From: Psammoneis japonica
Taxonomy: Eukaryota
Assembly (NCBI GenBank): GCA_008632985.1
Contig: QPGO01000109.1
Location: forward strand, 1-64,000
Length of the DNA: 64,000 nucleotides
Reading direction: 5' to 3'
In this document: positions 9,872 to 50,458 of the stretch, in pieces
Layout: each line of letters opens with the position of its first letter
How positions within the stretch are numbered: the stretch's first letter is position 1
Position numbers and translations under genes: made by a program
Notes under the pieces: generated by a model
Told to the model about the DNA's origin: nothing
The model's input: only the letters and a program-made list of their open reading frames with translations
Databases searched by the model: none

Positions 9872-9955
9872 ACGGTTGGCAAGGAGCTGGGCCACGGCGA
9901 CGCCATGCACAGGGTCGAATTGATCCTGCCAAAGCTGGCGTCCATTCGAGGGGAC

Positions 9956-10131: not shown

Positions 10132-10900
10132 TTGCAATGGCACCAGTGCCCCTCACTGCCAGACGCCAGGCTTCGCGGATGCTTGACTTGAACATTGGTC
10201 AAGCCATGGCCAACCAGCTGCGCAGTCTGTGGGTCAAACAAGTGTCTGCATGAAAAGTTCACCAGGCTGTCTCCAGACTGCCCTCTCAAATGGAACATCA
10301 TGACGGAGTCAACTTTTCACATTGCAGTCAACTTGTTGGTTTTGCACGTCCTCAGTCGGCATCACCCTGAGGTGATGTTGTGCCAAAACAACTTGCAATG
10401 GTGCCAGTGCCCCTCACTGCCAGACGCCAGGCTCTTCGCGGATGCTTGACTTGAACATTGGTTGAGCCATGGCCAACCAGCTGCGCAATCTGTGGGTCGA
10501 ACAAGTGAGATGCTCCTCCACTGAGCTGAGCAACTCGGATCGATTGCAAGCTGAACAATTGCCTGCCTTGGAATGGATGGCTTGTGCTTCTGCCTTGGCG
10601 CCACGGTGCTGTGAGGACTTTCTTGTGCCCAGATTGTGCCCATGTGCAGTGTTGTCATGGAGTGTTCCCACCATTGGAGCCACACAAAACTGCCAATCGC
10701 AGCGGCCCAATCTGAGTGCTTTTCCATGTTCAACAAGGAGCGGCACAATCCAGTTGACAGCGAGCATGATGGCTGAGCTTTGTTCCACAAAGACGAGAAG
10801 CGCCCATTAAAAATCTGTCTCCAACCAATTTTGTCTTGAGCTTGAAACACTGCCGCAGCACTTTGATGGACATTTGCTGAGCACAACACCTTGTCGTGAA
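10132..10900 (-). pseudogene. C-terminal fragment of a non-LTR (LINE-like) ORF; paralog at ~29765-30280
   Basis: 'QAQDKIGWRQIFNGRFSSLW...WAAAIGSFVWLQWWE' resembles the QxxIGWxxxxxGR..W tail of diatom non-LTR elements (from memory). Confidence 0.55.
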
Positions 10901-11008
10901 ACCAACACACAAAAAACATTGTCATGTTGACAGACAAGATGTCATGTGCCAAAGATTCAGAAACAAACCCCAACCCCAAACCCAACCCCAAACCCAAGCC
11001 TGACCCTT

Positions 11009-11470
11009 TTTGCATTTTTGCATTTCCACATTTCCGTGTTTTCGTGTTTTTCTGCATTCCCACATTTCTGCATTTCTGCACTTCTGCATTTCTGCATTTT
11101 TGCATTTCCACATTTCCACATTTCCACATTTCTGCATTTCCGCATTTCCGCGTTTGGGCATTTTCGCATTTCCTCATTTCCTCATTTTCGAATTTCCGCA
11201 TTTCCGCATTTCCGCACTTTTGCATTTCCGCATTTCCGCATTTCCGCATTTTCGCATTTCCGCATTTTCGCGTTTTCGCATTTTCGCACTTCTGCACTCA
11301 CGCATTTGCGCATTTTCGCACTTCCGCATTTTCGCACTTCTGCATTTCCGCATTTCCGCATTTTCGCATTTCCACATTTTCGCGTTTCTGCATTTTTGCA
11401 TTTTCGCACTTCTGCACCCGCGCATTTGCACATTTGCACATTTGTGCATTTGCGCTTTTGTGCGTTTGTG
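11009..11470. repeat. 8-bp satellite (tttYcgca)n; also ~12435-12550, 13429-13530
   Basis: Visible 'catttccgcatttccgcattttcg' arrays. Confidence 0.95.
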
Positions 11471-12119
11471 CACCTCCATGCACTGAAGGGACACAGCCCA
11501 CTGGCAAGGGCGCTGATCAAACAAGATTTGTGGTGCAAGTGTTTGGGGCTGGGGGTGCCAGAGCAAAGCCAACGGGGCAACTGCCACAAATGCCTTGGGA
11601 AAGCAGAGCAGGGTTTGTTGCTTCAAACAACACATGTGTTTGGGCAGAATGGAGTGCAGCGCCGGTGGTGTGGACGGCAACACAAGGGAAGGAGACGAGG
11701 AGGCATGCGCCCACAAAAATGGAGCTGACGTGGAGCGGACACATCAGCAACAAAAGAGACATCACCTGCAGCTGTGGATTGAAGGACACTCATGATGAAA
11801 CCAGGTCAAGCAAAATGGCTTCTGTGGCACGTCAACAAAAGCGTGCGTGGTGCGGGAATGGTGCACTGGGGGAGAGAGGTTGACATGCTCACCCAACATG
11901 CTGTGACCCCCAATGTGCAGAGCCGAGGATGAGCACATCATGGGGGACAAATGGGCTTCCCCATGGTGCAGAGACGGATTTCACTGATTTGTCCCCTCGC
12001 GCGCCGCATCTTGGCTTTTTTGTAAAGTGCAACAACAACAACATGAGGGCAACTGTGACAACAACTTGAGTCACAAGGGTGGCACAACTGCTGCCGCTGC
12101 CACCGCCATTTTTCCATTC

Positions 12120-14010
12120 ATGATTTTGTGCCCTTGACCACTTTGCGCCCTTTTTGATTTTGTGCCAATGGCCGCCTTTTTTGCTCTTCCTGGTTTTTTG
12201 CCGTTGGCCACTTTGTGCCCTTTGTGCCTTTGTGACTTTTGCACTGTCCTTGGCCAATTTGTGCCCTTTGCAACTTTGTGCCCTCAGCTGCCACCACGCA
12301 CTCTCGCTCCGTTCAGTGATTTTTTTTGTGCCCCAGGAAAGTTTGTGCCCTTTGTGTTTTTGTGCCCTCAACTCCCATTTTTTGTCATTTTTTGTTTTGT
12401 GCCCTTGGCCATTTTGCACCTTTGAGATTTTGCGTGCATTTTCGCATTTTCGCGTTTTTGCATTTTTGCGTTTTCACATTTTCGCGTTATCGCATTTTCG
12501 CACCCTCGCTTGCACTTTCGCATTTTTGCTCGCATTTTCGCACTCTCGCATTTGGCGCTGGGGGCACCTTTGAGATTTTGTGCCCTCAGCCATGTTGCGC
12601 AATTCTTGGTTTTGTGCTCTTGACCTTTTTGTGCCCTTGGCTGCTTTGCGCCCTTTTCTTTTTTTGTGCCCTTGGGCACTTTGCCCTGTCTCGTGGTTTT
12701 GTGCCCTTGGCCATTTTGCGCCCTTTGCAACTTTGTGCCCTTTGCCATTTTGTGCCTTTTTTGGTTTTGGGCCCTCAGCCGCATTTGGTGCCCCTCATGA
12801 TTTTGTGCCTTCAGGAATTTTTGGCCATTGTGGTTTTGTGCCTTTTGCCGTTTTGGACCCTTTCTGATTTTTTGCCCTTGGCAGCTTTGTGCCCTCAGCC
12901 ACCATTTTGCACCCTCAGTCATTTTGTGACCTCAGCAGCTTTGTGCCCCTGCCTGGTTTGTGCCCTTTGTGGTTTGGCGCCCTCAACAGAATTTTTTGTC
13001 CTTTTTGATTTTGTGCCCTTGGCCATTTTGCTGGTCACGACAGAGCTGCGGAACAACAAGAACCTGCCCGATGAAGAGCGCGGGGCAAAGAAGAGAAAGT
13101 GCGCGAGATGCCTGAAGTGCTTCGTGGCAGAGAACTCCAAGAACGGAGACGCGGAATGGAGCGCACCCAGGGGACGCAAAAAGGAGGATTTTTGCAGGAA
13201 GACTGTGGCAGAGTGTGGCAGGAAAGTGGGGGAGGGGGGCAGCATGTTGGGGAGCGAGGAAAGCCACGTGACGGGCTGCGCTGAGATGCGTGGGCTGGAG
13301 CCAGCACCTGTTTGGCAGACAATGTGTGAAAAGCGGCAGTCACGCTTGTTGCAAATGACATTGCAGACACAATCTAAATTGAGCGGCTGTGCTCCACGGC
13401 GCCAGCTGGAGAGCAGCTGGAGAAGGGTGCATTTTCGCATTTCCGCATTTTCGCATTTCCGCATTTTCGCATTTTCGCATTTTCGCATTTTCGCATTTTC
13501 GCATTTTCGCATTTTCGCATTTTCGCATTTGGCGCTGGGGGCACCTTTGAGATTTTGTGCCCTCAGCCATGTTGCACAATTCTTGGTTTTGTGCCCTTGA
13601 CCTTTTTGTGCCCTTGGCTGCTTTGTGCCCTTTCCTTTTTTTGTGCCCTTGAGCACTTTGCCCTGTCTCGTGGTTTTGTGCCCTTGGCCATTTTGCGCCC
13701 TTTGTGACTTTGTGCCCTTTGCCATTTTGCGCCTTTTTTGGTTTTGGGCCCTCAGCCGCATTTGGTGCCCCTCATGATTTTGTGCCTTCAGGAATTTTTG
13801 GCCATTGTGGTTTTGTGCCTTTTGCCATTTTCGACCCTTTCTGATTTTTTGCCCTTGGCAGCTTTGTGCCCTCAGCCACCATTTTGCACCCTCAGTCATT
13901 TTGTGAGCTCAGCAATTTTGTGCCCCTGCCTGGTTTGTGCCCTTTGTGATTTGGCACCCTCAACAGACACCTTTTGTCCTTTTTGATTTTGTGCCCTTGG
14001 CCATTTTGCT
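12120..14010 (-). repeat. Degenerate reverse-complement copies of the 17/20-bp minisatellite, interleaved with other repeats
   Basis: Recurring 'ttttgtgcccttggccattttg', the reverse complement of the 5891-7410 unit; paralog ~31575-32400. Confidence 0.85.
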
Positions 14011-14409
14011 GGTCAAGACAGAGCTGCAGAACAACAAGAACCTGCCCAACGAAGAACGCGGGGCAAAGAAGAGAAAGTGCGTGAGATGCCTGAAGCACTT
14101 CACGGCAGGGAACTCCAAGAACGGAGATGCGGAAGGGAGTGCACCCAGGAAACGCAAGAGGGAGGATTTTTGCAGGAAGATTGTGGCAGAGCGTGACAGG
14201 AAAGTGGAGGAGGGGGGCAACGGGTTGGGGGATGAGGAAAGCCACGTGGTGGGTTGCACTGAGACAAATGAGCTGGAGCCAACACCTGTTTGGCAGACAA
14301 TGTGTGAAAAGCGGCAGTCACGTTTGTTGCAAATGACACTGCAGACACAATCTAAATTGAGCGACTGCACTCCACTGCGCCAGCCGGAGAGCAGCTGGAG
14401 AAGGGCACA

Positions 14410-14950
14410 ACACAAGCGGCGCTTTGGGAAGCCAGCCAACCGATCTGTTGTCAGCCAGCTGTCCAATGTGTTTGAGTGGGTGCGCCAGAGTTTTTGGCCC
14501 GTTCGCTTTCTGCATGGCCTGGAACAACCCAAATCTGTGCAGACTCAGTGCGCTTTGCCCTGCAGAACAGTTTTTGGGAGTGTTTTCTGGCTCGCGGCTC
14601 AAAATGACATGCAAAACAGCACGGACAATGGTGTTTTGCCAAATTGAAAAATGCGATCATCTCTGAGGTCGGAACCTGGATGCTCTCAACAGAGTTTGAC
14701 ACATTGCGTCATCTTCTGCAAGACAAGGTCAAGAACATCCAGGTTCATGTGGGTGGATCATGGTGAAAATTCTTGCTGAAGGCTCGCATTGACAACGTCG
14801 CTTCTGTTGCATCACGACCAACCTTGTGCATTGCCATTCATGCTGTGTGTTTTGTCGGGGCTTTGTGCGCTTGTGACCGTTTGGCTCATGCGCGATTTCT
14901 CTTTCTGCGCTGTTCTTTTGTTCTGCAGGGTCTCCGTTGTCGCGAGGCAT
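14410..14950 (-). pseudogene. Possible Harbinger/DDE_Tnp_4-like transposase fragment; paralog ~32810-33340
   Basis: Minus strand 'KTHSMNGNAQ', 'HPGSDLRDDRIF', 'VCTDLGCS' loosely match K.HS.N.Q / PGS..D / D.GY if Tyr is restored. Confidence 0.25.
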
Positions 14951-15635
14951 CTGACAGAATTCGAAGAAGAGCTGGATGCCGGCATGTCACTCTCTGGCTG
15001 AAACACATCCAGCTGCTGTGTGCAAAAAGCCTCTCAACTTGAGCTGTGCGGCAAATGGTCCAGCTGGCAACCGGCTGCTTGATGGCCTGGGCTCGAATCC
15101 TGGGCATCGCATTTTTCAAGTCGTTGGGTCGGATTTGGTCGAGTTGGTCAATCTTGATCAAATCCTGTCATGGCACGATTCTCAGAGTGACGCGCGTGTC
15201 TCTCTGTCTCAAAAACGGGGCATGCCTGCCTCGGGGGGACAGCATTGTTGGGAAGCCCCCCGCAAAACAGTCGGGGCAGAATGGGGTGTTGCCAGTGTGC
15301 AGAGGGCAGCCGCTCAGCATGCTTTGAACAAGGGGGGTGCAAAAAATTGCCCAGGGAGTTTGGAATCTGTCAGCGATGCAGTCGACATCAGCGCGCTGTG
15401 GGGAGTGCCATGCACTGCAACGAGAGTCCATGTTTGAGCCCTGTCTTCAACTCCGGCATCAAAGATGTGGGTGGGTCCCTTGACAGCAGCGGAGCTGTGT
15501 GACAGGAGTGATTCAACCTGCCCGTCCAAATGATCCTGGGTGGCTTGGAAACCTTGTGGGGGCGATTCGGTGACAGCCACATCTGACAGATTCACGACAC
15601 ATGGGGAGTGACAGAATTTGAAGAAGAGTTGAATG

Positions 15636-16031
15636 GACGTGTTCCAGATGCAGGTGGGAATCCGTGTGACATTGGGCCCGCAGACTTCTGCATGCGAGCT
15701 CCGCAGCAAAATCATGCGGCAATTGAAATGTCAATGATCGCCAACAGAAAATGAGGCAATTTTGCGAACGCACAAACTCGCACATGATTGAAGTGCATCA
15801 TTTTTTACTTGGCCAGTTGCATTCTTCAGACATTGAAGAATGCAGCTGGCGCATTGTTGTTTCTGTAAATTTGTCACACAAAACATCTGGGGCTTTGCAA
15901 AACAGCGAGTCTGGACAATTTTTTTTAAATGTCACACGCAGAAATCTACGTGCGAAACACACGATGGATGACAAAAATCATTGTTGTCACACATCAGCAC
16001 TGCGAGCTCCCACCCAGGGCTGGAACGCGTC
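15636..16031. mobile_element. MITE, GAC...GTC family, copy 2 (396 bp), TSD AATG
   Basis: 'gacgtgttccagatgcaggtggga...tcccacccagggctggaacgcgtc'; empty site 'gagttgaatgctggc' in the paralog at ~34420. Confidence 0.92.
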
Positions 16032-16899
16032 AATGCCGGCATGTCACTCTCTGGCTGAAACACATCCAGCTGCTGTGTGCAAAAAGCCTCTCGACTTGAG
16101 CTGCGCTGTGAATGGTTTGGTTGGCAACCGGTCACTTGATGGCCTGGGCTCGAATCCTGGGTGTCACATTTTTCAAGTCATTGGGTCGGATTTGGTCAAG
16201 TTGGTCAATCTTGATCAAATCCTGTCAGTGTCCCAGAGACACTTTTTCTTGTCAAGAATGTCGCCTCTGAAGCGCGATGGCCATGGCAATTGAACGACGA
16301 AGCCAAGTCACAGACACAGCATCAGGAAGAGTTCACAACAAACATGGCGACTTGGAGCCATGATGTCTCAAGCTGGGTGAGCTCTCAAGAGCTCAAACAC
16401 ATCATCGTGCAGTTTTGACAACATTTCTCCCCGACTGTCCATGGTGATGCAGAGTTTGATTTGGCAGACCAGTGCATCATGGTGGCTCTAAAGGCAAAGA
16501 TTGCTTCTTTTGGCTGCAAGGCAGCATGTGACCCAGAAACATGTGACTCATTTGCACTGTTTGTCAGCCAGTGCAACAACATCAGAGCGCAAATTGCAGC
16601 GATCCTGACCACCCTTCTCACAGGCAATTTTTGCTGCCGTCACAGGCACAAATGTCAAGGCTTCAATCCTTGACAGTTGTGTGGACCGTGGCTTTTTGTC
16701 ACATGTCACAGTGTGCAATTTTTCACCATGGGAACCCACCTTGTCCCATGGGATCCAACCCTTGACTGTCAGAATGCCGTCCCTTTTTACCTTTTCAATG
16801 CGAAATTCAAAACGTTTGGTCTGATGACAAGTCAATGCTGACCACTGCATTTCATGGGTTTGAGGAACCTTCCATTGTGAACACTGGTTGTCAAATGAA

Positions 16900-19136: not shown

Positions 19137-19525
19137 GATGGGCTCCAGTCCTGGGTGGGACTTTTTGTGACATTCGCCCCATGGAATTCCACGTGCGAGC
19201 TCTGCATTTCTTGCTTTGGTCAATGGACACATTTGTCTTTGACACAAAATGAACGGCCAAGTTTGCAGCACACATGTCTCTGTTCGCACTCAAAGTTTTG
19301 GACAGTGTGCCTGCCCCACACCACTCTTAAGACACTCGAGAATGGCGTAGAAGGAAAAAACATTAAAAGTTGTTGAATGGATCGCCTGATGATTGCACCA
19401 TAAAATCATGCAAAATTTTGCCAACATCACGCAGAAATGTGCGTGCGCGACACACGGCACGATTCAAAAAACTGTCGATGTCACAGTTCAGCAGTGCGAG
19501 GTCCCACCTAGACCTGGAATGTGTC
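19137..19525. mobile_element. MITE, GAC...GTC family, copy 3 (389 bp), TSD CAAT
   Basis: 'gatgggctccagtcctgggtgggac...gtcccacctagacctggaatgtgtc'; CAAT on both sides. Confidence 0.9.
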
Positions 19526-21500: not shown

Positions 21501-23479
21501 CAGCACACCCTCTTGTCAAATGCATTTTGGGGAGAGGGTGCGCTGCTGTGAAATGGGCAGAGCATTGCACACACAGAAAATGTGCCAAAATGCAGGCAGG
21601 GAGCTGCTGACTGGAAAACTGGTGGGTGCAGGTGAAAACAAGGTAATTTTTTGGTGTCATTGACAGAACACAAAAGAGGAGGGGAGGAGAGAGAGAGGAG
21701 AAGAGAGGAAAAGGGAAAAGAAGGGAGAAAGAGTTCAGCACTGCAAGTCCAAGTGTGTGTTGTCATGCTTCGTTTTGATGCAAAAAATCTGATTCTTTAG
21801 TGTGCCTCCAATGAACATGAAAAAGACACAAGCTTTGTAGAAACAAAGCAACAATGAATGCAAAACAGTTTTCCACATTCAAGTGAGACAACGCAGCGCA
21901 GAAAACCATCACAAAAAACCACCATGATGGCGCAGAAGCAGCCGATGCTTGATCATTGCCATCAAACCTTCTCTTGCAAACAACGCCAATGCAGGTCAAT
22001 TCCACATTTTACTCTGACATTGTGTGTCCAAGAAAACAGAGGTGAGAAAGTCCAAAAATGGGTGAAAGCTCCTTCTGTGTTTTTGCTGCTGTTGGCATTG
22101 CTTGATTCTCACACGGTTGGCAAGGAGTTGGGCCACGGTGACACCATCGATGGATGTTGGGAACACAAAATCGACTTTGCTGAAGAGCACACAACAAATC
22201 GCAGCTGCGAGCAGGGGCTGCAATGCAACAATGCCATCAATGGACCTTGGGAAAGGGGGGGCTGTGGAAACGCCGAGGGGCTGCGTGATGCCGTCGGGCC
22301 GTGGTGTCACCCTTGGGATGCCGGTCGAAAGTCAAAACAGCAGCAAGAGATGGAAATGGATGCACCTGTCATGAGGGCATGTTTGCTTTTTGTGCCAACA
22401 GAAGGCAAGTTTGTGGTCACTCTTGCTGGTGATTGCTGGTCCAGCTGAATGGCACGACAGCAGTGCAGTGTTGATTTCCTGACTGTGGATGCATCTGGTG
22501 CTCACACAAATGTTTGCCTCCACGTCCTTTGCAGTCTTGACATTGGCAAGCACGGCAAGTCCTCCTGCCCCTTCTCTCTTTGTCAGGGCCACGCAAGACT
22601 GCGGTGGAGCCATTGAAAAGCACTGTCAAAGTTGACATTTCCATGAATGTGCAACAAATTCATCAAAACAAAACTCATTTTTTGATGACAAAATGTGCAT
22701 TGAAAGTCTTTGGCAAATTTAAATCAAAACAAAAAGGCAACAATTGCACACATGAAAAGGAAATGAGAAATTCAACTTGACTCTTAAAATTTTTGTTGAA
22801 GTTGAACAATGATGACACACTTTTGTGCAATTCAATGTTCCAAAATTTACAAAGGAAAGTGAGCAACACTGTGTTGCGGCCTCTGATGAAATGTGGAGGG
22901 TGAAGGACGGGACAAATGGGTCATTGTGTCAAGTCTCAAAAGCAGCTCAAGAGTTTCAGCCAACAAGAATCATCAGCTTCATAATTTGTCAAGTGAGTGA
23001 ATGGCAAATGGTGTTGATTTGGCTGACAGCACAGCCAATGTGCAGGTGCGCCTTGACAATCTGTTGCACTGCACTCTGATGTTGCAGAACAAAAAGAACA
23101 ACTTTGGTTTACATTGATCCATCATGACAGAAGCACACGAGCTTTCCCTGGCCCTTTTGGAGCAATTGGGCAAGTGAAAGAGGAGCTGCAGAAAGAGATG
23201 TGGACGACTCCATTTTGATGCATGGTCATCACGTGGTGTTGTCGTGAGTCGCTGATGGGCATGCCATGCTTTCTGTTTTTGTGCTGCGTCTGTGCAGGAA
23301 TGCACGTGCTTGGCTCTCGTGCAGTTTCTGTGTAAAAAGTGCAGCAGGCTGTCTCCGGACCGCCCTCTTAAATGGAGCATCATGATGGAGTCAACTTTTT
23401 ACATTGCAGTCAACTTGTTGGTTTTGCACATCCTTGGTTGGCATCACCCTGAGACGATGTTGTGCCAAAACAAACTTGC

Positions 23480-23655
23480 TGAGTGAATGCAGTCATGCTG
23501 TTGCTGAGTGTGGTGTTTGGCAAAGACCATCACTGTCGCTGACACAGAGGGCGGCATGGAATGACCTCACAATTTTCTAGAACCTGTTGATTGCTGTGCC
23601 AACATTTTCCATCGCATCTTGTCAAATTCCTGGAGACTGTGGTGTGAATTGCTCA
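23480..23655 (+). repeat. 5' LTR of Copia B
   Basis: TGAG...CTCA; same length as and alignable with 29589-29764 and 9956-10131. Confidence 0.92.
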
Positions 23656-23770
23656 CTTTGTCAGAGCCAATGACGTCTCTCTTTGTTCTGCAGCCTGGAA
23701 CGGGCAATGGCGTGGCGGCCATTCTTTCGATTTTTGCGGCAAGCGCCATGGTCCATGGACGCTCGCGCAA

Positions 23771-24267
23771 CAGAAATTGTTCACTGCAAATGTGACACAG
23801 TTGTGAATGTGAACACAACTCGCTCGTTGGACCTGAGCAATGTGCAACGGAAATCAATCGTTGGAAACGATTTGATGTGCGCGCAATGCAGATGTGCACT
23901 GGGATGTGTTGAGCATGGAATTGTTGAGGAAATTGACACTCCGTTGATTTGCCGGTCTCAATGTCATTGGTTGAGCCAACTTTTGCCGTTGGCGATCGCG
24001 CACCAACTGCACAATGGAAAGACACACCATGACCTCACTTCAATCGAAATTGTTCACTGCAAATGTGACACAGTTGTGAATGTGAGCACAATTCGCTCGT
24101 TGGACCTGAGCAGTGCACAACAGAAATCAATCATTGGAAACAATTTAATGTGCGTGCAATGCTGATGTGCACCGGGACATGTTGAGTGTGGAGTTGTTGA
24201 GGAAATTGACACTCCGTTAATTTGCCGGTTTCAATGTCATTGGCTGAGCCAACTTTTGCCGTTGGCA
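23771..24267 (+). repeat. Two ~220-bp direct repeats (spacing ~273) in the Copia B leader
   Basis: 'gaaattgttcactgcaaatgtgacacagttgtgaatgtga...gagccaacttttgccgttggc' at ~23773 and ~24046. Confidence 0.85.
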
Positions 24268-24335
24268 TGAGAAAATCGAAACGAAACATGCACGCACGCA
24301 TGTCGTGCCTCTGATGGGGTTATTTTGACTGCACA

Positions 24336-25625
24336 ATGGCTGCCGCTGTCGCTTTCAATGCAGCCCTCACCCGGATTGGGTTTGACGATGCCACCAGGGC
24401 CCATGTTGTGGTGCAAGGGATCACCGATGCTGATTCCTGCCACCAAATCCCGCTGTCCGAGGTCGGAGACATGGTCAAGGGATTCGTCAAGGACGCTGTT
24501 GACAACCCAGCTGTGCAGTTCCCACACCTCTTGATCAGGAAGTTCAAGGCATTTTGAGCTTTTCTGGATTGGCAAACGACACGTGGACAGCCAAGGCAGG
24601 CCCAATCTTTCAACGACGCTGCAATCACTTGCTGAACAGAGTGTCTGAGTGAATTGTTGAACATCCAGAAGGACAAATCGGACGACAACTCCCCAAGCGC
24701 TACACCTCTGAGTCAGATGCACGATTTTTGCAATTGGGACGAGCTGTTTGGGACCAAGCTCCAGCACCGCCGCAATGCAGTTACGGGCGTTCCACTTTTG
24801 TGCGTTGTTTGCGAGACTTCGGAAGTCAACAATGAGGTGCGCAGTGCCACTCATTCGAACGTCGACAAGGACCTTGTCGCTGCCACGATCCATCAAGGGA
24901 ATTTGCATGACACTGACAACAAGCAGGTTTGTGATCTCTTGAAAAAGCTGATCATTGATGGGCCAGGGTGGGCCTTGATCAAACCACGCAAGAACCGCGC
25001 GCATGCTCAGATCACTGCCGCAAAATGCGCTGGGCGCGGTCGTCATGCGTTCAACCAGCATGAGCCGGTGGCAGAGACCAAGAAGGTCTCAGATTTCCTG
25101 AAGGGAATCACGGACCCAAGGTTGGAGACCGGAAAGAGCATCGCAGACGGCGACAAGGCAAAACTCTCCAGCTTTGATTTGTGTCAACAGCACATGAAGA
25201 CACTGGTCGAGAACTCAAAGAATCGGGTGACGGATCACCGCCAGATCGCAGCATTGGAACGGGACAACGCCAGGAACAGGAACCAAGGCCAGGGAAAAGG
25301 CAAGGTGAAAGACAAGCCCAGGATCAAGGCAGGCCATTGTCCCAAGGAAGAATGGGATGACCTCAACCAAGAGGAGAAGGCCAAAGTCAATGAGCTTTGG
25401 GAGAAGAAGAAGCGTGAGAAGAAGCGCCGAGCTGCTGCTCTGAAAACGGAGGAAACCAAAGAACCTTTGAGGAAACATTCCAAGGTGATGGTTGCTGATC
25501 CCAAGGACATTGAAAAGGAGAAAACCTCAAAGGAAAAAGGGGGTGCCGATGCTGGGAATCAGTTTGGGCGCAGAGCGCACAAGCCTGCGGCTGCAAGCAT
25601 TGCGGAAGCCAAGAAAAAGGAATGA
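24336..25625 (+). pseudogene. Copia B gag with internal stops
   Basis: 'FNAALTRIGFDDATRAHVVVQGI', 'GVPLLCVV' (cf. G.PL.YVV), 'DNKQVCDLLK...GPGWALIK', 'KVSDFLKGITDPRL'. Confidence 0.8.
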
Positions 25626-25631
25626 AAGGTC

Positions 25632-28600
25632 ATGCCAACGAGCAAGGACAACAACCTTGTAGAAGTTAAAATAGAATCTCGAATCAATTCTTATGATGCT
25701 GATTCTGTCTGCACCAATGGAAATGTGTCTGTGCCTTTCGCTAAATCCTTAAGACGCACAGCTTCAGTCGACACTGATGCAGGCGACAACTCCCTTTTCA
25801 ACAAGCTGGGCGCGCATGCCGACACATGCGTTGCAGGATCCAGCTGTGCTCCCTTCTCTGACCCCTCTCGTGCTGTCACTGTAGATCCACATTCCAGCGA
25901 ATGCGACCCAATCAACAACATCCCGATGCAGATGGTTGCTGCTGTCTGGGTTGACCCGAGTTCTGGTCAACCACACCTCCTCATCTTGAATGAGGCCATG
26001 CACATTGGGGACAGGATGAAACACTCACTGACATGTCCCAATCAGCTCCATGCTGACGGCTTGACGGTGCATGATGTGCCAAAGCAGTTTGACAGCTCCA
26101 GCACTCATTCAATTGCCTTCCCGGACTCCAAGGTCTGGATCCCATTGTGAGTCATTGGGGTTGTCTCTGCTTTCGAAACAAGCAAACCTGCGGAAGATGA
26201 TCTTGAAGACTTGCCTGGGCTCAAACTTGCCTCACCCCTCCAATGGGAGCCGAACTCAAGCTGGGGTGTGGAACGTCTGTGCACCATTGGGAAGGAAGGC
26301 ACAAAAGAAGGCGCCCTGGCTCAAGTTCCCGAGCATCAAGGACAGGTTCTGCACAGACCACATGTTCTCGACTGTGAAATCTGTTCTCATGGGGATGTGG
26401 GTGGCTCCACATTTGCAAATGGTTGTGGACATGACTGCTTCCATCCATGGAAGTCGAAGGGCAAGCATCCCGATGCGACTGCGTCATTCATGCACGACGC
26501 AGGCGTTCCAACGGAAATTGCATCGGACGGTGCTCCCGAGCTGACTGATGGCTGCACAAAGGAAATTTGTGAGGAGTGCTGGATCAAACAAGGGGTTGCT
26601 GTTCCTTGCAGTCCATGGCAGAACTTGGCCAAAGCCTCCATTCGTGAGCTGAAGAAGAAAATGCAGATTGCAACAAGGTGCACGAATGCGCCAAAACGCT
26701 GCTGGTCCTGCTTTGCCAAGTGGGCCATGGCTGTCAGGAGGCTCGCAGCCTCTGAGCATCCGGAAATGGATGGGAAAGTCCCCAAAGAGGACATCACGGG
26801 TTCAACACCAGACGTCTCAGCTCATGCCCTCTTTGACTGGCACCAGCCGGTGCACTTTATGATGCCTCAGGCAAAATTTCCCTTTGAAAGGAAGTGCATC
26901 AGGCGCTGGTCAGGTGTCGCAGAAAACTGTGCAGATGACATGGCATTTGTGATCCCACCTGAATCAGGCACACCCATCATTCGGAAGGATGTGTGGGCTC
27001 TGCCTGAGGATGACTTGAGGGCCAATGCAATTTGGCAAAAGATTGAGCATCTCGATGCCAGTCTGAAACTCAGGCCAGGGGACGGTCAGGAAGGGAATGA
27101 CAAGTTCCCAGAACCACCCGAAGACCCATTTGGCAAGGAAGATGCCAATGCAGAGCCGTTCGAAGAAGATGCAACTTCTCCGGAAGCAGATGAGTTCACG
27201 CCGGAGGCAATGGATGAGTGTCTGGCGGTGGAACTTAGGCTCTCACGAGCTGGTGAGCTGCAGCATGCAAAAGTTGTTGCCAGGAAGCGCGACGCGGATG
27301 GAAATCTGACAGGGAAGCGGCACAAAAAGCCTGTCCTGGATTCACGGCTTTGTGAGGTAGAGTTCCCAGACAGATCTGCCGACACGTTCACAGCCAATTT
27401 AATTGCTGAGAACATCTGCTCCCAGGTTGATGGGGAGGGACGATCTTGCCAAATTGTCAAAGAGATTGCAGGTCACCAAAGTGACGCATGCGCAGTGCAC
27501 AAAGATGACGGTTTCTTTGTCACAAAGAGTGGCACGCGCAGGCCCCGCCGAACGACGATCGGCTGGGACACACAGTTTGAGTGGAAAGATGGAAGCTCTA
27601 GTTGGCTCCCTTTGTCGGAGGCAAAAGAATCGTTCCCTGTCCAAGTCGCGGAGCATGCTGTTGCAAATGAGATGGCTGGTGAGCCAGCGTTCAACTGGTG
27701 GGTTCGAGACGTGTTGCGTCGTCATGCCAGGATGGTCATGAAAGTCAAGACCAGGTGCTGGAAGCGCACTCACAAATTTGGTGTCGAACCGCCAAAATCC
27801 GTGGAGCAGGCCTTGATGCTGGACAAACAGTCTGGGCTTGACCTGTGGTGAAATGCAACTGAGAAGGAGATGCGCAATGCAATGCCAGCCTTCGAATTTG
27901 TCGATGATGACCAGATGGGACACAAGGAAATTAAGTGCCACTTGGTGTTTGACATCAAGTTGGACTTGAACAGGAAAGTGCCAGCAGCTCTGAATGACTT
28001 GGAAGTCATGTGTGCCAACATTCAGAATGCTCGTCTGAATGCACCAATGAAAGAGTGCTGTTGCACAATTGCTGGCCTGGAATTTGGCAAGCAGAGTGTC
28101 GGTCGACCCGTTAAAATTGTCAGGGCCCTGTGCGGACTGAAGAGTTCCGGCGCTGCTTTCAGGGAACATGTGGCAGCAATGCCAAGGCTCGCAGTGTTCA
28201 CCTGTGGCAAGGGCGATCCCGATGTGTGGATGCACAAGAATGCCAAGCTGGATGGCTTCAAGTGCTGGGGGTGCATGCTTGCACATGCAGATGACCTGCT
28301 GGTTGTCTCGCACGAACCCCAGAAGTTCATGGATTGCATGGCTTTGAGACATGTGCTAAAAGAGGGAAGCGTCAAGGAACCGGAAGAGCACTGGGTGCCG
28401 AAGTGAAGAAGTTCCAACCATCTGACTCGGACGGCAAAACACGTTGGGCCCTTTCATCTGACTTGTGTGTCAAGCGGGCCACTGCCAACGTTGAGTTTGA
28501 ACTCGGCCGTGCAGGCCGGGGACTCAAGAAGAGAGTCACAACGCCATTGAGTTTGGGGCATCACCCTGAACTTGACGCTGCGCCTGAGCTGGATGCCTGA

Positions 28601-29368
28601 AGGGCGACTTGTTTCCAGGGACTCATTGGCGTTTTGTGTTGGGTGGTGGAACTGGGGCGCACTGACATTGCAGCGCCAGTCTCTCTTCTGTCTTCTTGCT
28701 TGGCAGCGCCAAGGGTTGGGCACCTGGATGAGGTGTTTCACATCTTTGCCTGTTTGAAGGCACACGCCAGGTCAGCGATGGTGTTTGATGACACGGAACT
28801 GACCTTCAATCAACCACGTTTTCAGGAATGTGACTGGTCGGAACACCATCCTGGGGCAGCCGAAGCTGTCCCTCATGATGCCCCTGAGGCCAGAGGGAGC
28901 AGTGTCGCTGCTGCATGTTTCGTCGACGTGGATCATGCTGGTTGTCGAGTGACGCGCCGATCCCATTCTAGGATCATTGCATTCATGCAACGGGCCCCAA
29001 TCTTGTGGTGCTCCAAGCGGCAGAACACTGTGAAATCCTCAACTTTTGGGTTGGAATTCGTTGCGATGAAGATTGCCGTGGAGCAGATTGAGGCCTTTCG
29101 ACACAAGCTTCGCATGATGGGTGCTCCCATCGATGGCTCCACCAACGTCTTCTGTGACAATGAGGCCGTGTTTAAGAACTCAATGCGGCCCGAGTCGACA
29201 CTCAAAAAGAAGCACAATGCCATTGCTTGTCACCGGATGCGTGAGGCACAGGCTGCTGGCATTGTGCGCATTGCTTGGGAGGATGGCGAGACGAATCTCG
29301 CTGACGTTCTCACCAAGTTGATGCCCGGACCAAGGCTCCGGGAGTCAATTCATCACATTTTGTGGTGA
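25632..29368 (+). pseudogene. Copia B pol (protease, integrase, RT, RNase H), frameshifted, with internal deletions
   Basis: 'LGAHADTCVAG', 'PCSPWQNLAKASIRELKK', 'RALCGLKSSGAAFR', 'LAHADDLLVVS', 'ILWCSKRQNTV', 'CDNEAV...IACHRMREA...NLADVLTK'; the ARFVAGGH block seen in copy A is missing. Confidence 0.92.
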
Positions 29369-29588
29369 GTGTGATTCCAGTGGCGGGCAAAACACCCGAG
29401 CCCAATGCAGTTGTGGCACCACTGATTGCTTCGTCTTGCAGACGAACCGGGATTTTCCGTTTCCAAAATGGAGACGGTTTTGCCCATCCCGAGACATGGT
29501 TTTTTTTGAACTGGCCTGGAAAGGGCCGGCAACGCGGGTGCACAGGGTCAAATTGATCCTGCCGAAGCTGGTGTCCATTCGAGGGGAC

Positions 29589-29764
29589 TGAGTGAGTGCA
29601 GCCACACTGTCGCTGAACATGGCATTTGGCAAAGACCATCACTGTCGCTGACACAGAGGGTGGCACAGAACAACCTTGCAATTTTCTGGAACCTGTTGAT
29701 TGCCGCACCAACATTTTCTGTCGCATCTTGTCAAATTCCCAGAGACTGCGGCGTGAGTTGCTCG
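29589..29764 (+). repeat. 3' LTR of Copia B
   Basis: Follows the PPT; ends CTCG (CA->CG); followed by TTGC. Confidence 0.92.
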
Positions 29765-30367
29765 TTGCAATGGTGCCAGTGCCCCTCACTGCCAGACGCC
29801 AGGCTTTGCGGATGCTTGACTTGAACATTGGTCGAGCCATGGCCAACCAGCTGCGCAGTCTGTGGGTCGAACAAGTGAGGTGCTCCTCCACTGAACTGAG
29901 CAACTCGGATGGATTGCAAGCTGAACAATTGTCTGCCTTGGAGTGGATGGCTCATGCTTCTGCCTTGGCGTCACGGTGCTGTGAGGACTTTCTTGTGCCC
30001 AAATTGTGCCCATGTGCAGTGTCATCATGGAGTGTTCCCGCCATTGGGGCCACACAAAACTGCCAATCGCAGCGGCCCAATCTGAGTGCTTTTCCATGTT
30101 CAACAAGGAGCGGCACAATCCAGTTGACAGCGAGCATGATGGCTGAGCTTTGTTCCACAAAGACGAGAAGTGCCCATTAAAAATCTGTCTCCAACCAATT
30201 TTGTCTTGAGCTTGAAACACCGCCACAGCACTTTGATGGACATTTGCTGAGCACAACACCTTGTCGTGAAACCAACACACAAAAAACATTGTCATGTTGA
30301 CAGACAAGATGTCGTGTGCCAAAGATTCAGAAACAAACCCCAACCCCAAACCCAAGCCTGACCCTTT

Positions 30368-30930
30368 TTGCATTTTTGCATTTCCACATTTCCATGTTTT
30401 CGTGTTTTTCTGCATTCCCGCATTTCTGCATTTTTGCATTTCCACATTTCCACATTTCTGCATTTTCGCATTTCCACATTTCCGCGTTTGGGCATTTTCG
30501 CATTTCCTCATTTTCGCATTTCTGCATTTTCGCATTTCCGCACTCCCGCATTTCCGCACTTCCGCATTTCCGCATTTTCGCATTTCCGCATTTCTGCATT
30601 TCCGCACTTCCGCACTTCCGCGTTTCCGCATTTCTGCATTTCCGCATTTCCGCATTTCCGCGTTTCCGCATTTTCGCATTTTCGCATTTTTGCATTTTCG
30701 CATTTTCACATTTTGCATTTCCGCATTTTTGCATTTTCGCATTTTCGCACTTCTGCACTCGCGCATTTGCGCATTTCCACACTTCCGCATTTCCGCATTT
30801 TCGCATTTTCGCATTTTCGCATTTCCGCGTTTTCGCATTTTCACATTTTCGCACTTCTGCACCCACGCATTTGCGCATTTGTGCGTCTGCGCTTTTGTGC
30901 ATTTGCGCTTTTGTGCATTTGCGCATTTCC
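30368..30930. repeat. 8-bp satellite (tttYcgca)n
   Basis: Visible tandem array, paralog of 11009-11470. Confidence 0.95.
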
Positions 30931-33486
30931 ACGCACTGAAGGGACACAGCCCACTGGCAAGGGCGCTGATCAAACAAGATTTGTGGTGCAAGTGTTTGGG
31001 GCTGGGGGCACTGGAGCAAAGCCAACGGGGCAACTGCCACAAATGCCTTGGGAAAGCAGAGCAGGGTTTGTTGCTTCAAACAACACGTGTGTTTGGGCAG
31101 AATGGAGTGCAGCGCCGGCAGTGTGGACGGCAACACAAGGGAAGGAGACGAGGAGGCATGTGCCCACAAAAATGGAGCTGACGTGGAGCGGACACATCAG
31201 CAACAAAAGAGACATCACCTGCAGCTGTGGATTGAAGAACGCTCGTGATGAAACCAGGTCAAGCAAAATGGCTTCTGTGGCACGTCAACAAAAGCGTGCA
31301 TGGCATGGGAATGGCACGTTGGGGGAGAGAGGTTGACATGCTCACCCAACATGCTGTGACCCCCAACGTGCAGAGCCAAGGATGAGCGCATCATGGGGGA
31401 CAAATGGGCTTCCCCATGGTGCAGAGACGGATTTCACCGATTTGTCCCCTCGTGCGCCGCATCTTGGCTTTTTTGTAAAATGCAACAACGACAATGTGAG
31501 GGCAACTGTGACAACAACTTGAGTCACAAGGGTGGCACAACTGCTGCCACTGCCGCCGCCATTTTTCCATTCATGATTTTGCACCCTTGACCACTTTGCG
31601 CCCTTTTTGATTTTGTGCCAATTTCCGCCTTTTTTGCTCTTCCTGGTTTTTTGCCATTGGCCACTTTGTGCCCTTTGTGTCTTTGTGACTTTTGCACTGT
31701 CCTTGGCCAATTTGTGCCCTTTGCAACTTTGTGACCTCAGCTGCCACCATGCACTCTCGCTCCGTTCAGTGATTTTTTTTGTGCCCCAGGAAAGTTTGTG
31801 CCCTTTGTGTTTTTGTGCCCTCAACTCCCATTTTTTGTCATTTTTTGTTTTGTGCTCTTGGCCATTTTGCACCTTTGAGATTTTGTGTGCATTTTTGCAT
31901 TTTCGCTTGCATTTTCGCATTTGGCACTGGGGGCACCTTTGAGATTTTGTGCCCTCAGCGATGTTGCACAATTCTTGATTTTGTGCCCTTGACCTTTTTG
32001 TGCCCTTGGCTGCTTTGTGCCCTTTTCTTTTTTTTTGTGCCCTTGAGCACTTTGCCCTGTCTCGTGGTTTTGCGCCCTTGGCCATTTTGCGCCCTTTGTG
32101 GCTTTGTGCCCTTTGCCATTTTGTGCCTTTTTTGGTTTTGGGCCCTCAGCCACATTTGGTGCCCCTCATGATTTTGCGCCTTCAGCAATTTTTGGCCATT
32201 GTGGTTTTGTGCCCTTTGCCACCTTGGGCCCTTTCTGACTTTTTGCCCTTGGCAGCCTTGTGCCCTCAGCCACCATTTTGCACCCTCAGTCATTTTGTGA
32301 CCTCAGCAATTTTGTGCCCCTGCCTGGTTTGTGCTCTTTGTGATTTGGCGTCCTCAACAGACATTTTTTGTCCTTTTTGATTTTGTGCCCTTGGCCATTT
32401 TGCTGGTCACCACAGAGCTGCAGAACAACAAGAACCTGCCCGATGAAGAGCGCGGGGCAAAGAGGAGAAAGAGCATGAGACGCCTGAAGCTTTTCACGGC
32501 AGGGAACTCCAAGAATGGAGACGCGGAAGGGAGCGCACCCAGGAAACGCAAGAGGGGAGGATTTTTGCAGGAAGATTGTGGCAGAGCATGACAGGAAAGT
32601 GGAGGAGGGGGGCAGTGAGTTGGGGGATGAGGAAAGCCACATGGTGGGTTGCACTGAGACACATGAGCTGGAGCCAACACCTGTTTGGCAGACAATGTGT
32701 GAAAAGTGGCAGTCACATTTGTTGCAAATGACGTTGCAGACACAATCTAAATTGAACGACTGCACTCCACGGTGCCAGCCGGAGAGCAGCTGGGGAAGGG
32801 CACAACACAAGTGGCACTTTGGGAAGCCAGTCAACTGATCTGTTGTCATTCAGTTGTCGAATGTGTTTGAGTGGGTGCGCCGGAGTTTTTGGCCCGCTCA
32901 CTTTCTGCGTGGCCTGGAACAGCCCAAATCTGTGCAGACTCAGTGCGCTTCGCCCTGCAGAACAGTTTTTGGGAGTGTTTTCTGGCTCGTGGCTCAAAAT
33001 GACATGCAAAACAGCACGAACAATGGTGTTTTGCCAAGCCAAAAAATGCGATCATCTCTGAGGTCGGAACCTGGATGCTCTCAATGGAGTTTGGCACATT
33101 GCGTCATCTTCTGCGAGACAAGGTCGAGAACACCCAGGTTCATGTGGGTGGATCATGGTGAAAATTCTTGCTGAAGGCTCGCATTGACAACGTCGCTTCT
33201 GTTGCATCACAACCAACCTTGTGCGTTGCCACTCATGCTGTGTGTTTTGTCGGGGCTTTGCGCGCTTGTAACCGTTTTGCTCATGCGCGATTTCTCTTTC
33301 TGCGCTGTTCTTTTGTTCTGCAGGGTCTCCATTGTCGCGAGGTGTCTGACAGAATTCGAAGAAGAGTTGGATGCCGGCATGTCACTCTCTGGCTGAAACA
33401 CATCCAGCTGCTGTGTGCAAAAAGCCTCTCGACTTGAGCCACGCGGCAAATGGTCCAGCTGGCAACCGGTTGCTTGATGACCTGGG

Positions 33487-33882
33487 GATGGGCTCCAATC
33501 CCAGGTGGGACTTTTTGTGACATTGGGCGCACAGAATTCTACGTGCGAGCTCCGCAGTGAAATTGTTGAGCAATGAAAATGTGAATGATCGCTGACAGAA
33601 ATAGAGGCAATTTTACGAACGCATCTCCTCCTCCAAATTTGAAGTGCGTCATTTGTGGTTTGCCCGGGCACATTCTTTAGACATTGAACAACATGCCCAG
33701 CGCATTTTCATTGTCATAAATGCAGAAAACAGAAAGCCTTTGGCTTCGCAAAAGAGGCAGTGTGGAACAATTTTTTGCAACAGAACACGCAGAAATGTGC
33801 GTGCAAAACATGCGACGGATGACAAAAAACAATTGTGTCACAGTCCAGCAGTGCGAGGTCCCACCTGGAGCTGGAACGCGTC
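33487..33882. mobile_element. MITE, GAC...GTC family, copy 5 (396 bp), TSD TGGG
   Basis: 'gatgggctccaatcccaggtgggac...gtcccacctggagctggaacgcgtc'; empty site 'cctgggctcgaatcc' at ~15086. Confidence 0.92.
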
Positions 33883-36800
33883 TGGGCTCGAATCCTGGGC
33901 ATCGCATTTTTCAAGTCGTTGGGTCAGATTTGGTCGAGTTGGTCAATCTTGATCAAATCCTGTCATGGCATGATTCTCAGAGTGACGCGCGCGTCTCTCT
34001 GTCTCAAAAATGGGGCATGCCTGCCTCGGGGGGACAGCATTGTTGGGAAGCTCCTGTGAAGCCGTCGGGGCAGAATGGGGTGTTGCCGGTGTGCAAAGGG
34101 CAGCCACTCAGCATGCTTTGAATGAGGGGGGCGCGAAAAATTGCCCAGGGAGTTTGGAATCTGTCAGCGATGCAGTCGACATCGGCGCGCTGTGGGGAGT
34201 GCCATGCACTGCGGCGAGAGTCCATGTTTGAGCCCTGTCTTCAACTCCGGCATCTAAGATGTGGGTGGGTCCCTTGACAGCAGCGGAGCTTTGTGATGGG
34301 AGCGATTCAACCTGCCAGTCCGAATGATCCTGGGTGACTTAGAAACCTTGTGGGGGCGATTCGGGGACAGCCACATCAGACAGATTCGTGACACATGGGG
34401 AGTGACAGAATTCGAAGAAGAGTTGAATGCTGGCATGTCACTCTCTGGCTGAAACACATCCAGTTGCTGTGTGCAAAAAGCCTCTCGACTTGAACTGTGC
34501 GGTGAATGGTTTGGTTGGCAACCAGTCACTTGATGACCTGGGTTCGAATCCTGGGTGTCGCATTTTTCAAGTCGTTGGGTCGGATTTGGTCGAGTTGGTC
34601 AATCTTGATTAAATCCTGTCAGTGTCCCAGAGACACTTTTTCTTGTCAAGAATGTTGCCTCTGAAGTGCGATGGCCACGGCAATTCAATGACGAAGCCAA
34701 GTCACAGACACAGCATCAGGAAGAGTTCATGACAAACATGGTGACTTGGAGCCATGATGTCTTAAGCTGGGTGAGCTCTCAAGAGCTCAAACACATCGTC
34801 ACGCAGTTTTGACAACATTTCTCCCCAACTGTCCATGGTGATGCAGAGTTTGATTTGGCAGACCAGTGCATCATGGTGGTTCTAAGGGCAAAGATTGCTT
34901 CTTTTGGCTGTGAGGCAGTTTGCAACCTGGAAACATCACTGCAGATGAGATTCACTTCATCCATGCTCTGAATGTTTTAATCAGAGCAAAGCTTTGTTTA
35001 AATCATCACATCACAACGCAGCATGTTCAGATCAAAATGCAGCCAATCAAGGCAAAAACGCCTGCGCAGAGCACAGTCAGAGCAATTTTGGTTGTTCGGA
35101 GCTTGTGAAATTTGTTTGGAGCATTGCACTCAGAGCACGATTTTTTGCAAAGTAGAGCACTGAGCTGACATTCAGAGCATTGCTGCGATCATTTCCATTT
35201 GATCAGAGCACGACTCTGAACATGTTTTGAAGTGCCCCACCATTTCCATTTAATTGCAGCACAACCACTCACACTCTGAACAATGCCAGGATGCCCATTC
35301 AAACAGAGCACAACTCTCGACAAAGTTGTCGATGCTCCGAATGACCTCTTTTGGACAACAACAAGCTGCGCAGTGCTCTGAATAAAACTTTCATTTAAGA
35401 AGCTGTGCTTCAATTAACTCTGGTTGACAAACACATCCACCGAACTCCGATGCATCGTGTCGTTGCGGCGATGTGTGACATGTGTGTTGTTGCTGCAACA
35501 ATTTGTTCTCATTGCATGTCCTTGTCTGTCGGCACTGTCGTTTGTCAGATGCTGCTGACATGGCCTTTTGATGACACTCCTGACACAATGCAAACATGCA
35601 TTTGCAAGAACCATTCAATGCATTCATGCAAACCCACACCGCCTTTCTTTTTCCCACCTTGCAAATGCTTGATCCAAAAACAACGTCACACTTGTCGCCA
35701 CAGCACTTTGTTGGGAAGAGTGGGTTTGTTTTGAAGCACACTTGAGTGAAACATTTTCCATCATCTTGATGGACCAAGGCATGGATCAAGTGAGCCTCCT
35801 TGCACTTGCACTGTGAACACAGACAAAGAAGTGCAATTGGTTGCTGTGCATGGACCAGACAAAGCAACAACAAGGCATCAACAACGTTTGTTCTCTGCCT
35901 GGGAATTGCAATCAGTTGCTTCATTGGCTCCAGCAATGACGAGCATTGCACTTTTGAGGTGACGTTTCTTTGTTGCCTTTTTTGTGACAAACAAAAAAAG
36001 TGAGAAGTGTTTCCAACGTTTTGCGCACAATCCGTGTGCATTTTTCTCATGCATTCTCACCATTTTCATTTGCAATTGATCCAATGGCATGGATGGATTG
36101 CCCGGTTGAGTCTGTCAAAATGTGCCGGCATGATGCCAACCAAAGGCCGTTAGATCAATTTCTCAATTTCAAACCGGAGCAACGACGGCGCTCTCACCTT
36201 TTTGTTTGCACCATTGACAATCATTGCATTTGCCTTTCTCATGACAAACAATGAATGTTTGAGACGTGCCCAATCAATTGCACAATTTGTCACAAGACAA
36301 CATGTGATCTTGCCATCTTCTGTGGCACTGTCCTCCGCGTTTCAGTCACTGGGTGTGGCTGAGTCTGGTCTCCAGCAATGCAATGATGCCAAGTTAGAGC
36401 AACAGCCCACATCGGCAACTGGAGCACCAACGATGCTCTCACCTTTTCATTTGCCCAGTGGCAACTGCCTTGTCTGCCTTGGCACAAACAATGGCAGCTG
36501 CACGAGATGCAATGATGCGCGTCAAGCCTCACAACTGCCTGTTTGCTCACCCTTTCTTTTTGCACTCACTCCATCATTGTTTCAGGCATTGGCGATGGTT
36601 GAGTCTGGCAAGCAGCAACACAATGACAACAATTGATCAAAGCAACAATCTACATCGACAACTGCTGGAGCACTGACAACGTCCTCACCTTTTGTTTTTT
36701 GCCAGTGGATGCCATCTCATTTGCCTTTGCATGAACCACATTGTGAGAAGCGTGCAATCAACCGCCCATGTGCATTCGCAGAACAACAATGTGTGCTTGC

Positions 36801-50416: not shown

Positions 50417-50458
50417 ATGTGCTTATCAAACTTATTCTACGGGGCTGGCTGCTAACTA

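Follow-up and report, generated by a model that had tools for sequence, protein, structure and literature searches.

The closest described counterpart of the process reported here comes from Bigelowiella natans, where mutation-accumulation lines showed de novo changes of TpA to CpA or TpG in chromosomal DNA (bioRxiv 10.64898/2026.01.13.699255). In this preprint, changes of A to G or T to C account for 230 of the 231 mutations seen in two integrated viral regions, all of them on TpA, at about 1000-fold the background rate and in part of the lines only, and its authors propose an ADAT2-like DNA adenine deaminase (bioRxiv 10.64898/2026.01.13.699255). Here we describe a related pattern in a stretch of 64,000 nucleotides (positions 1 to 64,000 of contig QPGO01000109.1, in the following called the window) from the diatom Psammoneis japonica. 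The element in question, at 23480-29764 and named element B here, represents one Ty1/copia (diatom CoDi-like) long terminal repeat (LTR) retrotransposon, dead by now, which was inserted at TTGC in a repeat-rich domain. Our overall reading, which we consider quite likely, is that the chromosomal copy of this dead copia element has undergone near-saturating change of TpA to CpA or TpG, plus a slower decay of CpG.

The likeness to B. natans is close: only TpA is affected, on either strand (A to G and T to C), in resident chromosomal DNA and in a regional manner. In addition, both share a long-term state of low TpA and high CpA plus TpG, and in B. natans the coding sequences poor in TpA are enriched in reverse transcriptase (RT) and DDE domains. 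However, B. natans is a chlorarachniophyte (rhizarian) with giant-virus and virophage inserts, whereas here a copia element, satellites and flanks are affected in a diatom (stramenopile). The observed/expected ratio (o/e) of TpA is about 0.03 here, near saturation, versus 0.45 in the nucleocytoplasmic large DNA virus (NCLDV) region of B. natans, and the evidence given for B. natans consists of de novo events, whereas ours is historical (LTR pair, codons). A literature search yielded no report of TpA hypermutation in diatoms, and a chromosomal TpA process was found in the B. natans preprint only. In a 2025 preprint on diatom transposons, a scan by keyword turned up no mention of dinucleotides, hypermutation, RIP, deamination or TpA. 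The kind of process is therefore known from one preprint in another lineage, while its saturated occurrence in diatom transposon and satellite DNA is new as far as this search shows.

Three further systems are similar in some respects. Fungal repeat-induced point mutation (RIP) likewise represents a regional, transition-only, dinucleotide-specific decay of repeats and transposons on both strands of chromosomal DNA, leaving dead copies with skewed dinucleotides, but it runs in the opposite direction: CpA and TpG become TpA, and TpA rises. Its signature of C to T in CpA (or another CpN) with TpA excess and CpA/TpG deficit is not found in the window, where o/e is 0.14 for TA, 1.58 for CA, 1.54 for TG and 0.60 for CG. 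APOBEC3 and ADAR resemble the process as deaminase-type, transition-only hypermutation that kills retroelement copies, and ADAR favours a 5' U before the edited A, as stated in the preprint (bioRxiv 10.64898/2026.01.13.699255). Unlike the pattern in the window, where both strands are equally affected and non-retroelement DNA as well, they are strand-specific and restricted to reverse-transcribed sequences. The methyl-CpG decay of silenced transposons, finally, appears here as a second process; it cannot remove TpA or explain the turn of Tyr into His or Cys at 25 of 25 conserved columns. The replacement of CG between copies which such decay leaves behind is present as a sequence pattern, both in the LTRs (2 shared, 6 one-sided) and in a segmental duplicate described below (65 shared, 79 one-sided).

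With respect to the transposon itself, the CoDi elements, e.g. Blackbeard of P. tricornutum, are alike in the diatom host, the copia-type gene order, the short LTRs and a target-site duplication of 4 bp, which is reported as TTCC in Blackbeard (PMC2806351). The same publication reports that LTR retrotransposons of P. tricornutum are CpG-methylated and give CpG methylation as a feature of CoDi elements (PMC2806351); in the window it is the CpG-decay pattern that was read. Unlike the CoDi elements described, the copies in the window are TpA-free and non-coding.

Element B is bounded by direct repeats of 176 bp each, L5 (23480-23655) and L3 (29589-29764). A first-pass annotation of the window had given exactly these coordinates, as pairwise comparison of the repeats shows. 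The repeats have the ends TG...CA, but L3 terminates in CG. Of the 176 positions 29 differ between them, every one by a transition; when the sequences are recoded as purines and pyrimidines, L5, L3 and a further copy at 9956-10131 (Lx) are identical at 176/176 positions. Recoded BLAST gave meaningless E-values throughout and was used for this recoded identity alone. Sorted by dinucleotides, the pair contains nine reciprocal TG/CA swaps, six sites with CG versus TG or CA, one with TA versus TG, two shared CG and no shared TA. The first-pass annotation had described the LTRs by such swaps and by a single direct TA/TG pair; all seven string pairs that it quoted were found, as was the one TA/TG site, and two further swaps (23507-23511 and 23612-23615) can be added. 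Since TA and CG are self-complementary, a TG/CA swap remains when one LTR has been hit on the top strand and its partner on the bottom strand.

The differences are not placed at random, since adjacent differing pairs number 10 versus 4.6 expected for random placement of 29 differences (P = 0.006; 20,000 permutations), and the control swap AC/GT occurs once between L5 and L3. The negative control drew on metagenome contigs, where 19 of 38 loci of at least 5.5 kb with related, unmutated copia elements yielded an LTR-like pair; in these 19 pairs, 3,505 aligned bp contain 62 differences, 34 of them transitions, with no TG/CA swap and 239 shared TA. The LTR pair of element B shows that TpA was lost much faster than CpG. 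For this pair, all sites taken together give a Kimura two-parameter (K2P) distance of 0.200, which falls to 0.029 (4/140) outside the dinucleotides that bear CG or TA or are swapped. Dating by LTR divergence therefore overestimates the age, as had been predicted, here by an inflation of K2P of 6.8-fold, and inflation is to be reckoned with in such genomes.

The argument requires that L5 and L3 derive from one insertion, and they do, because TTGC abuts L5 on its left and L3 on its right as a perfect 4-bp target-site duplication (TSD), because an empty site lies within the window, and because contigs of a public run join the flanks. By BLAST, 23323-23479 matches 10241-10396 (88%) and 29765-30365 matches 10393-10988 (96%). 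In X1, the single public run which contains the stretch (0.56 of the sampled 31-mers present), one contig with a word depth of 315 joins 23473 to 29765, and 23434 is linked to 29765 by another contig that is more diverged. An origin of the LTRs in different insertions, the case under which the first-pass annotation expected its claim to fall, is contradicted by the TSD, the empty site and the bridging contigs. Lx, which had been proposed as a third LTR for comparison, is not an independent one but arose with the flank when the 3' LTR was segmentally duplicated; it differs from L3 at six of 176 positions and has all nine swap states in common with it.

That TA was the substrate removed from element B itself is seen at its codons. 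For this comparison, which includes an older relative in the same window (element A), the outgroup comprised 20 of the 120 listed protein relatives, and a column counted as conserved with at least 80% agreement among at least 12 aligned relatives. In element B 446 of 564 conserved columns are unchanged, and none of the 25 conserved Tyr codons is kept: 14 are now Cys (TGY), 10 His (CAY) and one Arg (CGY). Element A, 66.5% identical to element B at the DNA level, gives almost the same picture, with 420 of 552 conserved columns unchanged, 0/26 Tyr codons kept and 14 Cys (TGY), 11 His (CAY) and one Arg (CGY) in their place. Tyr makes up at least 2.9% of each of the 120 listed relatives and is absent from the window frames. 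The specificity for TpA extends to A-initial codons: first-position replacements of A by G stand after T in 8 of 12 cases in element B, versus 1 of 90 unchanged A-initial codons (P = 2e-8), and in element A the figures are 11/15 versus 0/85 (P = 1e-11). Element B thus has what a process of the B. natans type leaves behind, namely no Tyr kept, only CAY, TGY or CGY in its place, the preceding T, and a TA o/e of 0.06.

The outcomes His and Cys are interleaved along the elements, with no long same-strand runs. In the 24 Tyr columns common to A and B the outcome is concordant in 11, swapped in 11 and includes CG in two; this 1:1 ratio of concordant to swapped columns is what an independent resolution of each TA in each copy would give.

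The loss of TpA is regional and includes DNA which does not belong to a retroelement. Satellites and target flanks (TA o/e 0.01-0.05) are depleted as strongly as the element, and in the surrounding domain CA (4732) and TG (4853) are balanced; CG o/e is 0.45-0.7. TA o/e is as low (0.01-0.10) in two islands outside the domain, at about 51750-54750 and about 55500-56250. Over intact intronless genes at 48.5-51.7 kb and 56.3-60.2 kb, which encode an alpha/beta hydrolase, a PEMT/ICMT-like protein, a xylose isomerase and TraB, TA o/e is 0.5-0.6. Among the 120 listed relatives of the TraB-family gene, 11 carry an organism name, in each case that of a diatom, with identities of at most 54%. The borders are sharp at a 250-bp scale: at about 48 kb the count of TA per 250 bp rises from 0-3 to 10-16, and at about 51.75 kb it drops again. 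Within the 64-kb window hypermutation is thus confined to regions, and the intact genes keep normal TA.

These findings support that the LTR differences arose after integration, in chromosomal DNA and on both strands. This was the core claim of the first-pass annotation, and it stands on the single insertion, the transition-only LTR pair and the depleted non-retroelement DNA. The LTR pair can be regarded as a natural before-and-after experiment, which places the mutations after integration and on both strands within 176 bp.

Each swap goes back to TA or CG, as had correctly been stated, and the shares of the two were estimated by simulation. Judged from the sequence pattern, CpG decay is clearly a second source of swaps in the domain. 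In the segmental duplicate (94% identical over 2,993 bp), which shows 178 differences including 156 transitions, CG is shared at 65 sites and one-sided at 79. A hand count of the Arg columns that are CGN-like in both A and B gave eight intact, nine one-sided and two doubly changed columns, one of these a swap. In the LTRs, the three-state site at 23642-23643 and its equivalents (TG in L5, CG in L3, CA in Lx) certainly had a CG ancestor, and the CpG classes (2 intact, 6 one-sided) predict about 1-3 CG-derived swaps.

The rejection simulation used a CpG decay of 0.38 per lineage (taken from the duplicate), a time of 1-3 times that since the duplication and a TA loss of 0.85-1.0 per lineage. With a prior for the TA and CG counts from the normal part of the window, the simulation accepted 156 of 400,000 draws, with a mean of 5.6 TA-derived swaps of nine, a probability of 0.76 for at least five and of 0.02 for at most one. 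A flat prior gave a mean of 5.9 (113/400,000 accepted; 0.73 and 0.05), the 19 related LTRs as prior a mean of 6.9 (390/500,000; 0.91 and 0.003), and the same LTRs weighted for the absence of transversions a mean of 7.2 (389/500,000; 0.93 and 0.002). Under this model about seven of the nine swaps would come from ancestral TA and about two from CG. The swaps are therefore a record of TA for the most part (5.6-7.2 of nine); about two of them, and the three-state site, represent ordinary CpG decay. A CG ancestry of nearly all swaps, which the first-pass annotation had named as contrary to its view, is not what the simulations indicate.

The composition of related sequences points in the same direction. 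Per 176 bp, the median in the 19 related LTRs is 12.2 for TA and 7.6 for CG, and CG reaches 15.7 at most, whereas an origin of all swaps from CG would require about 25 CpG in 176 bp; no 176-bp segment in the normal part of the window has 25 or more. A second repeat pair of similar divergence (19137-19525 and 47646-48034; 86% identical) contains 12 swaps versus 1.3 predicted by CpG decay, and seven one-sided TA. A formula for CG-derived swaps was also applied to the interior of A versus B (39/59) and was discarded as unreliable, because the 356 transversions there represent real lineage divergence; the codon-anchored counts were used instead.

Several results weigh against our reading and have to be set beside this evidence. 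The 12 swaps observed in the segmental duplicate equal the 12.0 predicted from CpG decay alone, and if the counts from the LTRs are taken by themselves, a CG-only model is not formally rejected by Fisher's test (P = 0.13). The simulation assumes equal CpG decay in the LTR and the flanking duplicate as well as independent sites. No unmutated LTR of the family was found, so that no swap site is polarised directly; a search with the LTR profile by nhmmer in 80 related metagenome loci gave no alignable LTR (best E = 0.34), and the LTR of element A has CA or TG only, and neither TA nor CG, at the five alignable swap sites. Finally, the orientation of the swaps is uneven, as L5 has TG at seven of nine and L3 has CA at those seven (two-sided binomial P = 0.18). 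This skew is not significant, but its direction is the one that editing would produce if some of it had struck single-stranded cDNA.

If all or nearly all swaps were ordinary methyl-CpG decay, the LTR pair would be silent on the TpA process. The three-state site with its certain CG ancestor, the six further sites with CG versus TG or CA, the agreement of the duplicate with the CpG prediction, the Fisher test and the reported CpG methylation of P. tricornutum LTR retrotransposons (PMC2806351) all fit such a view, which we nevertheless consider very improbable: the number of CpG it needs lies far above the median and above the maximum in the related LTRs, the simulated probability of at most one TA-derived swap is 0.002-0.05, and there is no shared TA in the LTRs and no conserved Tyr codon left in the interior. 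We give just as little credit to TA changes before integration, made by editing either in the RNA genome or, in the course of reverse transcription, in single-stranded cDNA, with the two LTRs edited at different steps of synthesis. Adenine editing of single-stranded DNA predicts TG in the 5' LTR (plus-strand strong-stop DNA) and CA in the 3' LTR (minus strand), to which seven of nine swaps conform with a likelihood ratio of about 4 (calculated by hand), while two swaps and the TA/TG site run in the opposite direction. The first-pass annotation had held the LTR pair to argue against editing of RNA or at the stage of reverse transcription; this model is indeed contradicted overall, but the LTR pair alone does not exclude editing at reverse transcription, given that seven of nine swaps have TG in the 5' LTR. 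The stronger case comes from elsewhere, because the ratio of Cys to His in the interior is 14:10 (14:11 in element A) without long runs, and because satellites, target flanks and the empty site are equally TpA-free and were never reverse-transcribed. The symmetry of CA and TG in the domain also speaks against it, as do the B. natans mutations, which arose in resident chromosomal DNA (bioRxiv 10.64898/2026.01.13.699255).

The LTRs might also stem from two elements, or L5 might have been replaced by recombination or gene conversion, so that their differences would represent divergence within the family. The region is rearranged, with the 3' LTR and its flank segmentally duplicated, and the family is abundant (860 X1 contigs on the element); still, the perfect TSD, for which the 4-bp TTCC of Blackbeard is a precedent (PMC2806351), the empty site with one TTGC and the contig bridging the flanks make such an origin slightly less probable again than the two previous explanations. 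Moreover, X1 contigs differ from the element by 97 transversions among 676 listed places (14%), versus 0/29 in the LTR pair (P about 0.013, calculated by hand). Least probable of all, in our view, is that the TpA loss is an artefact of assembly or base calling, e.g. of a modified heterochromatin base that was misread. Only 56% of the sampled 31-mers of the element are present in run X1, and at 40 listed places, none of them in the LTRs, all or nearly all X1 depth disagrees with the letter of the window, but CA/TG is replaced by TA at only three of these places, against 15 with CA/TG versus CG in the contigs, and 194 contigs match the window at 99% identity or more. In addition, neighbouring genes with normal TA and sharp borders, the clean 50:50 distribution of His and Cys at Tyr codons and the preservation of reading frames are at odds with an artefact.

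We therefore return to decay of the chromosomal copy by two processes. One of them probably converted TpA to CpA or TpG on the double-stranded chromosomal copy after integration, very fast and near saturation, in effect a change of A:T to G:C on one strand or the other which was independent for each site and each copy. The other is probably a slower, methyl-CpG-type decay of CG to TG or CA. The leading candidate for the enzyme activity of the first is adenine deamination in TpA of DNA, by which A becomes inosine and is read as G; this has been proposed for B. natans. The process may be aimed at repeats or foreign DNA. Going further, and with somewhat more doubt than conviction, one could see in the locus a RIP-like defence of diatoms in the opposite chemical direction, TpA-specific for A:T to G:C and acting per strand in sharp-bordered, saturated transposon and satellite domains with RTAY erased and TTAA spared, which would be the same system as in B. 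natans and old throughout the stramenopiles, alveolates and rhizarians. Should stramenopiles and rhizarians have the process in common, its enzyme would be a tractable target for work in transformable diatoms. Other genomes can be scanned with TG/CA swaps between copies of a repeat as a simple diagnostic, and Pfam-based transposon annotation fails on such copies.

The latter is evident in element B, the features of which are listed in Table 1 together with those of its surroundings.

Table 1. Positions of element B, its parts and related features in the window.
Feature	Positions	Strand	Basis or remarks
TpA-depleted, CA/TG-enriched repeat domain holding element B	1-48250	.	TA o/e 0.01-0.10 per 2 kb
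Element A, older relative of the same copia lineage	2162-5888	+	coding 2162-5504 by tblastn; own 3' LTR about 5707-5888
Copy of the 3' LTR (Lx = 9956-10131) and of the terminal 50 bp of the interior	9906-10131	+	left end of segmental duplication
Paralogous unoccupied target site	10241-10505	+	both flanks joined, single TTGC at 10393-10396
Left TSD, TTGC	23476-23479	+	same 4 bases after 3' LTR; once in the empty site in the window
5' LTR (L5), 176 bp	23480-23655	+	dinucleotides TA 1, CG 3, CA 16, TG 27
Putative stretch like a primer-binding site	23657-23667	+	immediately 3' of 5' LTR; by eye
Internal tandem duplication, 221-bp copies, 91% identical	23773-24266	+	5' part of element B
Open frame of 329 aa, gag-like	24636-25625	+	position in element; weak sub-threshold DUF5726 match
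Degenerate protease-integrase-RT-RNase H polyprotein region	25737-29365	+	tblastn with relative P0121
Polypurine tract GAGGGGA	29581-29587	+	directly 5' of 3' LTR
3' LTR (L3), 176 bp	29589-29764	+	dinucleotides TA 0, CG 7, CA 20, TG 20
Right TSD, TTGC	29765-29768	+	alignment with empty site

The reading frame of the polyprotein region changes at least three times, and the region lacks about 126 residues that the relatives have. In tblastn the 1,398-amino-acid (aa) relative P0121 is collinear with it over residues 20-1398 (segments 20-193, 320-363, 365-1071 and 1042-1398), which is consistent with the copia-type order of protease, integrase, RT and RNase H, with the integrase before the RT. A C-terminal frame of 255 aa has up to 71% identity to proteins of 1,350-1,415 aa with PF07727, among the 120 listed of 1,041 matches at E <= 1e-5. 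The relatives bear PF07727 (RVT_2) and one of them also PF00665, whereas a Pfam scan of the five copia frames in the window gave no match to RVT_2 or rve reaching E 0.01. This is a consequence of the decay, as 118 of 564 conserved columns have changed. The 329-aa frame is assigned as gag-like from its position and should be regarded as a candidate. The stretch behind the 5' LTR may resemble a primer site of the initiator-Met-tRNA type. Where element B has its polypurine tract element A shows GGGGG, and the 3' LTR of element A was found by nhmmer (E = 3.7e-5). Directly after this LTR follows a satellite with a 17-bp period (5890-7400), which has the opposite orientation to that of the arrays at 12100-14000 and 31560-32400. 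The tandem copies in the 5' part of element B have 20 differences, of which 19 are transitions, including three swaps and two one-sided TA.

The segmental duplication (9906-16542 and 29539-34936) includes more than 5 kb of flank with the 8-bp and 17-bp satellites and is 85-96% identical; an additional unit of about 261 bp, found in the left copy, is the empty target site. Transitions make up 88% of the differences between the copies, which are mainly CG versus TG or CA. Units of the 8-bp satellite (10985-11900 and 30365-31030) vary mainly between CCGCA, CTGCA and CCACA, so that the triad of CG, TG and CA occurs within one array.

The depleted islands between the normal genes (51750-54750 and 55500-56250) have very low CG (o/e 0.26 at 52-54 kb), and an AT-rich stretch at 54750-55500 contains 19-33 TA per 250 bp. 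The 150 TpA surviving in the depleted parts are not random (chi-square P = 2e-23). When 1-47500 plus 52000-54000 are compared with 48700-51500 plus 54500-60000, relative survival is 0.35 for TTAA, about 0.19 for TTAG/CTAA and TTAC/GTAA, 0.007 for GTAC and 0 for ATAT and ATAC/GTAT, the values being roughly multiplicative per strand. This suggests either a preference for the 3' neighbour, with TAT and TAC struck most and TAA least, or that some of the survivors are newly made TA. At the end of the window, a Cys-rich open frame of 983 aa without Pfam match (61048-63999, minus strand) runs off the sequence. Its TpA depletion is intermediate (o/e 0.2-0.3) and Tyr is still present, and it may represent a mobile element at an earlier stage of TpA decay.

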